From: Candidatus Micrarchaeia archaeon
GTDB taxonomy: Archaea > Micrarchaeota > Micrarchaeia > CAILAH01
DNA: 13,250 nt
NCBI GenBank assembly: GCA_038740245.1
Contig: JAVYLZ010000016.1
Span: 1-13,250, forward strand
Direction of reading: 5' to 3'
Shown here: piece by piece, positions 5,598-8,047 of the stretch
Position numbering within the stretch: the stretch's first letter is position 1
How the letters are laid out: each line of letters begins with the position of its first letter
Translations under genes and position numbers: made by a program
Notes under the pieces: generated by a model
Told to the model about the DNA's origin: nothing
Seen by the model: only the letters and a program-made list of their open reading frames with translations
Database searches by the model: none

Positions 5598-5666
5598 CCA
5601 GGGTTATAGTGGGCGGAGCCCCCTATGCAGGGGTGGCGGAGCCAGGTCAAACGCGCAGGACTTAAG

Positions 5667-5772
5667 TGCCGCTCTTTCGGGATGCCTAAAGAGCGGCGCC
5701 AGAAAGTTTTTGGAATTCCAAAAACGACGGCACTTAAGTTATGACTCCCGAAAGGGAGGATGATCTGAAGAA
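5667..5772 (+). other. tRNA intron 1 (106 nt, canonical position 37/38)
   Basis: Removal restores a 7-nt anticodon loop CTTAAGA. Relaxed BHB: central helix CTTA/GAAG (3 pairs plus an A.G mismatch), bulges AG^T and AA^A. Confidence 0.85.
5728..5768 (+). ncRNA. Putative intron-encoded box C/D-type guide module targeting U34 of its own pre-tRNA
   Basis: Antisense cggcacttaagt (5728-5739) to 5660-5671; D/D'-like ATGA at 5741-5744; stem ctccc-gaaa-gggag; 3-nt bulge gat; GA-T (C/C'-like) at 5762-5764. Confidence 0.65.
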
Positions 5773-5804
5773 ATCCTGTGGCCTAGCGCCTACGTGGGTC
5801 CAAA

Positions 5805-5876
5805 TCTCAGCCCAAGGGGGGCGCCCCCTTAGTCCGAGACCGCCCAAACCCCCTATGCGGGGTTAGCAAATGGAAA
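5805..5876 (+). other. tRNA intron 2 (72 nt, non-canonical position 59/60 in the T-loop)
   Basis: Perfect 4-bp central helix TCCA (5799-5802)/TGGA (5871-5874) stacked on the T stem, with 3-nt bulges AA^T on both strands. Confidence 0.85.
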
Positions 5877-5890
5877 TCCCACCCCCTGCA

Positions 5891-6691
5891 CTAATTTTGC
5901 ATTCTTACAACTTCAGTGGATACCTCTCCGTAAATGCGTGTCTCAACGGTGTGGACGTACTCGTAATCGTCGTTGTATATAAGCAGGGAGGTGCTGCGTG
6001 TGAGCGCACGCAGTATCGGCAGCGCCTCATCGCGCTTTTTCTGCGCAAAGTGGCCGAGCAGGTTGCTGCACCTTACGATATCAAACGTGTCACACCCGTA
6101 CTTCTCATACAGCTCTTCAAGGTAGGGCATCGGGTTGAGCAGGTCAAACGGGAACAGAACAACACGGGCCCCCCACATCTGTGTCTCCTCAAAATTTGTC
6201 AGGCGTATGTCCCCGCCAAAGACTGTTACGTGGTGCGCACGGCACGCAAGGAAGCCGGCAAGCTCTATGGTGGTCACGGCACGCATCTCCTCGGAATCGG
6301 TTGCACCAACACCTATGTCAAGCACGTTGAACGGGCCGCGCTTAATGAATATGCCCAGGCGCTCGCCAATTATTTTTTCGGTAAATGCAAGCCTGCCAGG
6401 CGCCGTGATTACGTTGGTTGCCTTTACCATCATCTCAATGAATTGCTCAAGCATTTGCGGGTCCTGCGCAATAAGCAAAATGAGGCGGTCGGTCTCAATG
6501 CCGCGTGCAGGCAGCGATTCAAGCTTGAGGACGGTGCGCACAATCTCTCTTGTGGGGTCCATGCCCAGCTCAAGCCCCACAACGTGCCCCTGGCGGCGCT
6601 TTATGTCGTTTATCGCCTTTTGGATATCCAGCAGGCGCAGTATTTCATCTGAATTGAGGGGCTTCCTCTCAACCCTTATCTGCTGCACCAT
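5891..6691 (-). CDS. Class I SAM-dependent methyltransferase-fold protein, CheR-like (paralog 1)
   Basis: VLDIGVG (motif I), VFGGDI, FPFDLL, FDIVRCSNLLGHF. ATG at 6691 is preferred because a TATA-like ttattaataa (6711-6720) lies within the longer ORF. Confidence 0.65.
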   Translation of the reverse strand: MVQQIRVERKPLNSDEILRLLDIQKAINDIKRRQGHVVGLELGMDPTREIVRTVLKLESLPARGIETDRLILLIAQDPQMLEQFIEMMVKATNVITAPGRLAFTEKIIGERLGIFIKRGPFNVLDIGVGATDSEEMRAVTTIELAGFLACRAHHVTVFGGDIRLTNFEETQMWGARVVLFPFDLLNPMPYLEELYEKYGCDTFDIVRCSNLLGHFAQKKRDEALPILRALTRSTSLLIYNDDYEYVHTVETRIYGEVSTEVVRMQN

Positions 6692-6710
6692 ACTACTCTT
6701 CCCGCAAAAC

Positions 6711-6752
6711 TTATTAATAAACATTACTATTTACTTCTTCTTGGCTTAAATA
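6711..6752. promoter_or_regulatory. Divergent TATA-like elements
   Basis: ttattaataa at 6711-6720 lies 20-29 nt before the minus-strand ATG at 6691; ttaaata at 6746-6752 lies 22-28 nt before the ATG at 6774. This fits leaderless archaeal promoters. Confidence 0.5.
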
Positions 6753-7249: not shown

Positions 7250-8047
7250 TTAGTATACGTGCTTTCCCTGTGCTATAATCTCTGTGTGCAGGGAATCCCC
7301 CTTTTTTACTTCGGCTATATGCCTGTCATCAAACCCAAAATTGTATATGAGCACAGAATCCGGTGCGGTAAGCGCACGCAGGTTGCCCAGTGCAATTGTT
7401 TGCTTTTCCCTGTCAAAATGCACGAGCAGGTTTGAGCACCGGATTACATCAAATTGCCATATAAAGTAAATGTTTGCAACATGCTCCATATACTCGGCAG
7501 GCTTGAGCACGTCAAACGGGAAAAATATCAGCAAGGAACCACCGATTTGCTGTTCTGTAAATTCATTCTGCAGTATGTCCCCGCCGAATATGCGGTGCCC
7601 GCTGCCAAACTCATCGTTCAAATGCATAAGCAGCTCAACGGTCGTTATGCCAATCATATTTGTTTCTTCATCGTACCCGCCAATGCCCACATCAAGCACC
7701 TTCAGCGGCTTCTGCTTCGGCATTATCTCCCGCAATATATTTGAGATGGCGATTTCCGTATCTGCAAGGCGCCTGCTTTTGGTGTTTGTGGCTGTGCGCC
7801 GGGACAATTCCTCAACCATCCTGTCCTGCAGTTCCTTGCTTGCCAGTATTGTTTCCAAAAATTTTGGATAGTTTTTGCACACTATGCTTAGCGGTGCGCC
7901 GGTAATTTTGCTTACAGTGTAAATTGAAAGTATGGATGCAATCCCTTCATGCTGCAGCCCGTTTTTTGCACGCTCAAAGTTGATCCTGCGCTGAAGCTCA
8001 ATGCATTCCTTTGATGTAATGATGGAGCTGAGCTCTTTAAACGACAC
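7250..8047 (-). CDS. Class I SAM-dependent methyltransferase-fold protein, CheR-like (paralog 2)
   Basis: VLDVGIG, IFGGDI, FPFDVL, FDVIRCSNLLVHF; clear motif-by-motif similarity to 5891-6691; GTG start. Confidence 0.65.
   Translation of the reverse strand: MSFKELSSIITSKECIELQRRINFERAKNGLQHEGIASILSIYTVSKITGAPLSIVCKNYPKFLETILASKELQDRMVEELSRRTATNTKSRRLADTEIAISNILREIMPKQKPLKVLDVGIGGYDEETNMIGITTVELLMHLNDEFGSGHRIFGGDILQNEFTEQQIGGSLLIFFPFDVLKPAEYMEHVANIYFIWQFDVIRCSNLLVHFDREKQTIALGNLRALTAPDSVLIYNFGFDDRHIAEVKKGDSLHTEIIAQGKHVY

Follow-up and report, generated by a model that had tools for sequence, protein, structure and literature searches.

A candidate single-K-turn, box C/D-like guide for wobble-base methylation in a tRNA-Leu(UAA) intron of a Micrarchaeia archaeon

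The window, i.e., the whole 13,250-nt stretch of DNA analyzed here, is one contig of a 688-kb assembly of a Candidatus Micrarchaeia archaeon that is 81% complete. It carries a tRNA-Leu(UAA) gene at 5627-5890 that is interrupted by two introns, at the 37/38 and 59/60 positions, the borders of which were set by comparison with orthologues (Table 1). Upstream of it lies a ribosomal L40e-like gene whose match was just under the cut-off. The tRNA numbering, K-turn position names and BHB rules follow common usage. No tRNA was called in the window by ARAGORN, and Rfam returned no match there, to a tRNA or to any sRNA family, at E values up to 1. This is probably because of the second intron at 59/60. 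The BHB of intron 1 is relaxed, with three of the four central pairs formed in the window and all four in most orthologues. For the splicing endonuclease, no PF01974 match was obtained in the 81%-complete assembly. The phage collection contained no DNA resembling the window, and a promoter and terminator scan, which used bacterial models ill-suited to archaea, was empty.

Table 1. Features of the tRNA-Leu(UAA) gene and of the module in its first intron (positions in the window).
Feature	Positions	Strand	Remarks
Exon 1, nt 1-37	5627..5666	+	U34 is 5663, anticodon TAA 5663-5665; assigned from the sequence and the same exon in relatives, some intron-less
Conserved target, nt 31-37, ACTTAAG	5660..5666	+	
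Intron 1, 106 nt, canonical 37/38 position	5667..5772	+	Borders agree with intron-less orthologues
Variable hairpin 1	5668..5697	+	Repeated element, also present at further tRNA loci here and in relatives; competitor of the guide extension
Variable hairpin 2	5706..5725	+	Missing from the closest orthologue (L002)
Guide extension, not conserved	5728..5732	+	Pairs with the first five intron bases
Conserved guide core, CTTAAGT	5733..5739	+	A5736 is D+5 and faces U34
Spacer base D+1, unpaired	5740	+	Length fixed at one, letter free
D'-like box, ATGA	5741..5744	+	GA invariant in alignment A1 (24 sequences)
K-turn C-stem with GAAA loop	5745..5758	+	5 bp, 5745-5749/5754-5758
Bulge GAT (5759-5761), GA (5762-5763) and T5764; C'-like box ATGATCT at 5760-5766	5759..5766	+	
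3' BHB strand (GAAG) and bulge bases	5767..5772	+	Pairs with nt 32-35
Exon 2, nt 38-59	5773..5804	+	
Intron 2, 72 nt, 59/60 position	5805..5876	+	BHB helix TCCA/TGGA
Exon 3, nt 60-73	5877..5890	+	Acceptor stem pairs with 5627-5633

The remainder of the gene and its surroundings had features of their own. Position 55 (5800), a near-universal U in tRNAs, is a C in the window and in the orthologue of one relative (G001) and a U in the other genomes of the family; it is matched by a G within the BHB helix of intron 2 and may represent either a tolerated change or a site of C-to-U editing. Intron 2 carries a repeat that is shared, in either orientation, with other tRNA loci of this genome and with other Micrarchaeia, and its end resembles the leader preceding the tRNA gene (5610-5633). 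An H/ACA reading of this intron did not fit by eye. The hairpin element of intron 1 (5668-5697) is repeated at many tRNA loci of the family genomes, and in the G001 orthologue the T-loop intron has three copies of it in tandem. On the minus strand, two similar-looking ORFs, 5891-6724 (277 aa) and 7250-8047 (265 aa), have SAM-methyltransferase-like motifs; the second gave a weak CheR match only and the first gave no match.

Intron 1 contains a module that consists, in order, of 7 nt antisense to nt 31-37, one spacer base, a D-like box, a stem-loop, a 3-nt bulge and GA. An earlier note on this DNA had described it as a box C/D guide aimed at U34 of its own tRNA, and all of the coordinates it gave for guide, target, box, stem and bulge agree with the sequence. 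The segment 5660-5671, ACTTAAGTGCCG, matches the reverse complement of 5728-5739 at every base, and A5736, the fifth base 5' of the box, faces T5663, which is U34. Judged from the sequence, the C-stem, the 3-nt bulge ending in U and the tandem G.A pairs are those of a K-turn, with a mismatch of A5741 and C5765. An alternative split of the K-turn, with AGGATGA as the C' box, would disrupt the 5-bp stem and was rejected by eye. The module has a single D-like and a single C-like box, rather than the two box pairs (C/D and C'/D') of a two-motif RNA. The proposal of a single K-turn is supported by the relatives: members of 33-42 nt have one box pair, a length at which no second pair is possible, and CTGA (5765-5768), considered as a second, D-type box, was rejected because it occurs in only two of the seven family carriers (G000, this genome, and G001).

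Folding predictions placed the competing forms of the precursor close together. The minimum-energy fold (-51.5 kcal/mol) kept the hairpin 5668-5697, with which the 5-nt guide extension competes, and about 8 guide pairs. A forced 12-bp guide form and a forced splice-ready BHB form were both predicted at -49.2 kcal/mol. The guide duplex and the BHB helix are mutually exclusive because both need nt 32-35. Perfect 12-nt inverted repeats within 130 nt are rare, being found at 61 of the 687,444 positions of the genome. Since 8 of the 12 bases of the repeat (ACTTAAGT) are palindromic and the tRNA introns of this genome are hairpin-rich, the 12-nt match in a single genome proves little, and the case for a guide rests on the comparative data instead.

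The module was present in intron 1 of seven of the nine genomes of the family; the Leu(UAA) gene was not found in the remaining two, which are 93% and 64% complete. The guide core, the one spacer base, the box, the stem, the bulge and the GA-U are constant across these introns, with the core kept at 7/7 and the stretch 5' of the guide varying from 14 to 85 nt. The 12-nt guide-target match put forward in the earlier note is exact in the window, but across orthologues the conserved unit is its 6-7-bp core, opposite nt 31-37. Inspected by eye, none of 12 Leu(UAA) and none of 6 Leu(CAA) genes of other Micrarchaeia families had the module. A loose guide-plus-box pattern yielded no more matches than its reversed control in a search of 401 Micrarchaeota genomes, and we did not use it further.

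A strict pattern applied to a genome collection gave 20 matches, 15 of them in tRNA-Leu(UAA) introns and 5 outside tRNAs. Six of the 15 were the family introns already counted; according to record titles, the 15 came from Micrarchaeota, Aenigmatarchaeota, Woesearchaeota, Nanoarchaeota and two unclassified archaea. This result shows the spread of the module and not its register, because the register was fixed by the pattern.

A scan of metagenomes for intron-bearing Leu(YAA) genes had neither guide nor box in its pattern. It returned at least 120 loci, from which 22 were dropped (intron-less or not tRNA) along with 4 duplicates, leaving 94 distinct introns among the matches listed (85 UAA, 9 CAA). 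A guide with at least 6/7 pairs beside a K-turn-like motif occurred, among the matches listed, 15 times at a gap of 1 and not once at gaps of 0, 2, 3 or 4, compared with a mean of 0.05 and a maximum of 1 in 300 shuffles of the same introns. The other 79 of the 94 introns among the matches listed failed this guide and K-turn test, some as near-misses, and in two introns (L138, L154) the K-turn was kept and the guide had decayed. Nineteen of the introns among the matches listed could be scored for the D+5 base, which was Watson-Crick with base 34 in 16 (U34:A in 10, C34:G in 6). The exceptions were two CAA introns, nearly identical to each other, in which C34 faces an A (L149, L176), and one UAA intron with T opposite U34 (L088). 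The guides of the two CAA introns also have an A opposite A31, and may be either guides lagging after an anticodon change or guides for another tRNA.

Other Leu(UAA) introns in this material had layouts of a different kind. Members of a second family (L083, L091, L104, L114, L118, L121, L134, L135, L139, L157 and others) have a segment antisense to about nt 30-33, a hairpin and a segment antisense to nt 38-42, with no K-turn seen; these are possibly another kind of self-guide. In a third family, recognized by eye (L084, L085, L086, L099, L137, L158, L184 and others), a GACAC-containing stretch looks antisense to the tRNA's own variable arm.

The register was followed further in a sample of Aenigmatarchaeota, according to a record title the phylum of one carrier from the collection scan (G405), using a box-free pattern that allowed either purine in the guide. 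Matches were obtained in 64 of 151 genomes, compared with 3 for the reversed control. By hand count, an NNGA box lay at a gap of 1 in 68 of 70 distinct places, the exceptions being one sequence that is not tRNA-like (G825) and one with a gap of 3 (G814). The D+5 base was G opposite C34 in all 15 CAA genes and A opposite U34 in 54 of 55 UAA genes, and in six genomes that had both Leu genes, each gene was accompanied by a guide matched to it. In the phylum of a second carrier (G404), the pattern matched in 12 of 301 genomes (control 4); inspected by hand, 7 of these had the box at a gap of 1, one had a gap of 0 and a broken K-turn (G472), and 4 had no K-turn or were not tRNA-like. The distribution of the module is patchy.

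The stem of the K-turn varied in a matched way as well. In 24 aligned cores the first three C-stem pairs were paired in 90% of cells, compared with 53% after shuffling, and 28 two-sided changes were counted. Stem covariation as high was seen in none of 500 shuffles, and slid partners scored far lower. Because relatives are not independent, these counts and those for the register overstate the number of events. Covariation, which the earlier note had offered as a check, is seen both between guide and base 34 and within the C-stem, and the note's placement of the D+5 base opposite base 34 of the intron's own tRNA is borne out. For a guide, one would expect the D+5 base and base 34 to change together between isoacceptors and phyla, as they do here.

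The module was not confined to tRNA-Leu. The tRNA-Met intron of this genome (C32:5100-5540, minus strand; L265) has the same module, with G at D+5 opposite C34 and a C-stem loop enlarged by a long insertion. The same arrangement, again with G opposite C34, occurs in the tRNA-Met introns of four relatives (G001, G002, G003 and G005). Five of 11 candidate Met regions proved to be tRNA-Met genes, all five with the module; the other six were chance matches outside tRNA genes. The earlier note had regarded the Leu intron as separately evolved, and this is doubtful because the tRNA-Met introns of this genome, of the four relatives and of Nanoarchaeum equitans carry the same layout. Searches of this genome for tRNA-Trp and Leu(CAA) genes found neither. 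One ordinary two-motif C/D sRNA candidate was observed at C31:4751, with 19 of 20 box letters (1 match; reversed control 0), and no rRNA motif was found in the assembly.

Taken together, the comparisons show, at the level of sequence, a K-turn layout, a constant gap of one base and a D+5 base that changes with base 34. We consider it very likely, on this comparative basis, that the module guides methylation of position 34, whether in its own precursor or in trans. The intron probably acts as a naturally occurring monopartite C/D guide for Nm34, with the precursor that contains it as the substrate before splicing. In the order of events that we propose, L7Ae would bind the K-turn and a Nop5 dimer would bind L7Ae and the K-turn; the guide would fold back onto nt 31-37 within the same molecule, fibrillarin would methylate U34, and the guide would then let go, freeing nt 32-35 for the 3' BHB strand and allowing the intron to be spliced. 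Support for this proposal is lowered by the exceptions and the patchy distribution described above, by the truncation of the local Nop5, by an earlier finding that single-motif RNAs were not site-specific (PMC1635284) and by the length of the conserved duplex, as 6-7 bp is shorter than any tested (8-11 bp) and than the usual archaeal guides of 10-12 nt (PMC7994747).

We infer action in cis from the shortest members. At seven Aenigmatarchaeota places, several of them in genomes that look closely related, G37 and the first three intron bases would form a GNRA loop closing a 6-bp hairpin of target and guide. In addition, pairing of the guide extension was compared in 15 introns in which 9 or more bases precede the guide (a set that leaves out the G003 intron); the extension paired with the start of its own intron at 2.5 of 4 positions, compared with 1.8 for exon 2 and 1.6 for other introns. 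Both observations point modestly to an unspliced precursor that folds on itself. The alternative is that the guide acts in trans, as an excised linear or circular intron or from a second precursor, perhaps with two introns per Nop5 dimer rebuilding a two-K-turn particle. There are precedents, as the Trp-intron guide was first read as acting in cis and later in trans (PMC7994747, PMC11408192), the N. equitans Met intron is reported to be stable and abundant once excised (PMC3491384), and one study needs two motifs for specificity (PMC1635284); the 7-nt core could also pair with the spliced tRNA. We nevertheless regard action in trans as unlikely, because the exon-intron GNRA loops of the shortest members fit folding of a single molecule, the extension pairs with its own intron start, and a duplex of 6-7 bp would be weak between molecules.

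The protein machinery that a C/D guide would need was sought in the genome, as the earlier note had suggested. Genes for fibrillarin (220 aa), L7Ae and Nop5 are all present, though the Nop5 is truncated, and fibrillarin and Nop5 were found in all five of the carriers checked from the collection scan. The Nop5 of this genome (L032:512-1279, on contig C23; 255 aa) is 93% identical to a Candidatus Micrarchaeota protein and aligns from residue 126 of the 388-aa solved Nop5 chain 3id5_A, such that it is without most of the N-terminal domain, the part through which Nop5 recruits fibrillarin (PMC9670817). The short form is not an effect of a contig end, because a divergent gene lies upstream, and 28 of 30 Micrarchaeia Nop5 loci are equally short by their first start codon, with a start codon at the same place in the other two. 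PF21572 was over its cut-off in none of 41 genomes, with a profile that detected only 2 of 4 archaeal controls, and a search of limited sensitivity with a profile of our own found no stand-alone gene for the Nop5 N-terminal domain. Nop5 was full-length in three of the other carriers (G405, G407, G408), short in G404 and broken across contigs in G406; in G405 and G407 the full-length gene lies near fibrillarin.

In a model of the complex, fibrillarin docked on residues 2-21 of the short Nop5 with a score of 0.69, the best of three controls being 0.02. Among solved complexes, 116 of 157 pass the mark for docking, as do 2 of 215 mismatched pairs; these counts are only roughly valid here. Docking runs agreed in at least 86% of contacts and the partner pLDDT was at least 88, and the pass may reflect likeness to Nop5-fibrillarin complexes that have already been solved. 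The model suggests that the first helix of the short Nop5 may still hold fibrillarin. Among the protein enzymes, neither TrmL nor FtsJ was over the cut-off in the incomplete (81%) assembly, and the single SpoU gene is TrmJ-like.

The truncated Nop5 bears on a second alternative, namely that the module is a folding or splicing switch bound by L7Ae, and perhaps by Nop5, that works without methylation, the guide hiding nt 32-35 until the protein binds or leaves. Not only is most of the fibrillarin-binding domain missing in Micrarchaeia, but the exclusive guide-paired and BHB forms have close predicted energies (-51.5 and -49.2 kcal/mol), any strand opposed to the BHB would covary with base 34 too, and some introns retain the K-turn despite a decayed guide. 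However, a switch has no need for a box exactly one base past a guide that ends at nt 31, an arrangement by which base 34 is the one that faces D+5 in each of Leu(UAA), Leu(CAA) and Met, and the module is commonest in the phylum whose two checked carriers (G405, G407) have a full-length Nop5 near fibrillarin. A switch of this kind therefore appears quite improbable to us. That the module is a relic or by-product here, i.e., a duplicated BHB strand beside a chance K-turn in a repeat-filled intron, is scarcely credible and largely refuted by conservation, since, even with a palindromic target core, a BHB strand that is itself antisense to nt 32-35 and introns that collect repeated hairpins, the core is kept 7/7 despite a 5' intron segment that ranges from 14 to 85 nt and a stem with changes in both strands, and shuffles gave 0.05 compared with the 15 observed among the matches listed.

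Returning to methylation of the intron's own precursor, a wider picture can be drawn, though we hold it only tentatively and think it rather doubtful as a whole. Micrarchaeia may run a stripped-down particle, with a one-K-turn, self-folding guide of 6-8 bp and a Nop5 that has one helix of the fibrillarin-binding domain; because guide duplex and splice helix are mutually exclusive, splicing may be delayed by the intron itself until wobble methylation has taken place; and the module may have been retargeted among Leu(UAA), Leu(CAA) and Met introns. One-K-turn guides in register on base 34 would explain what some DPANN tRNA introns, otherwise puzzling, are for, and would tie wobble modification to the order of splicing. 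The literature that we searched, mostly outside subscription papers and bioRxiv supplements, contained no account of a tRNA-Leu intron with a guide aimed at its own tRNA, nor of a short DPANN Nop5.

The guide in the euryarchaeal pre-tRNA-Trp intron has a full two-motif C/D build. This intron, known from Haloferax and as Pyrococcus sR50, guides Cm34 and Um39 and is reported to do so in trans (PMC7994747, PMC7714728, PMC11408192); where these sources, the last a 2024 review, deal with intron guides, the Trp intron is the only one they name. Like the Leu module, it lies in a 37/38 intron whose host tRNA is the target, it targets position 34 and it follows the D+5 rule. It differs in its two motifs, its two targets (34 and 39) and its host, tRNA-Trp, in place of the Leu(UAA) host, one K-turn and one target here.

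Guides for the same position have been predicted in Pyrococcus. The earlier note contrasted the intron with the protein-only route to methylated U34 through TrmL and Trm7, a contrast that leaves out these Pyrococcus C/D sRNAs. A review lists the stand-alone RNAs as predicted for position 34 of Leu(CAA), Leu(UAA) and Met (PMC7994747), so that they share the predicted position and tRNAs with the module described here; unlike it, they are separate genes that act in trans. For P. furiosus Leu(UAA), the prediction was placed at G47 instead (PMC7668247), in disagreement with PMC7994747.

The topology of the module is also that of engineered guides. PMC9670817 describes natural methylation guides as RNAs with two sets of C/D motifs. 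The engineered one-K-turn guides MMG4 and MMG5 have the same topology as the module and gave strict and efficient methylation with L7Ae on substrates forming 8-11 bp (PMC9670817), whereas in a study of hemi-RNAs single-motif RNAs were active but not site-specific (PMC1635284); half-mer structures are also mentioned in PMC6239191. As in the intron, the guide of the halfmer and hemi-RNAs is on the 5' side, a stem-loop closes their single K-turn or K-loop, and the 3' end overhangs. They differ in being artificial and trans-acting, with a 12-nt guide, 8-11-bp substrates and a full-length Nop5. Introns of 33-125 nt with a single K-turn in exact D+5 register would thus represent a natural test of the dispute over the specificity of one-motif guides.

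A known RNA much like the module is that of N. equitans, in which the 66-nt intron of elongator tRNA-Met yields a stable C/D-like RNA (Randau 2012, PMC3491384). That paper proposed only a "potential" guide, and its supplementary table gives the target as "no prediction". Like the Leu intron, it is a 37/38 intron of a DPANN archaeon with one D and one C-like box. In its row of the supplement we recognized, by eye, 7 nt antisense to nt 31-37, one base, a D box, a GAAA-capped stem, a GAT bulge and GA-U, with G at D+5 opposite C34. It differs in its Met host, in its C34 target and in that its RNA is shown to be expressed. On this layout, the module described here would work like a box C/D guide, lies outside the two-motif family and belongs with the N. 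equitans Met-intron RNA, to which it would give a target, C34, where none had been predicted.
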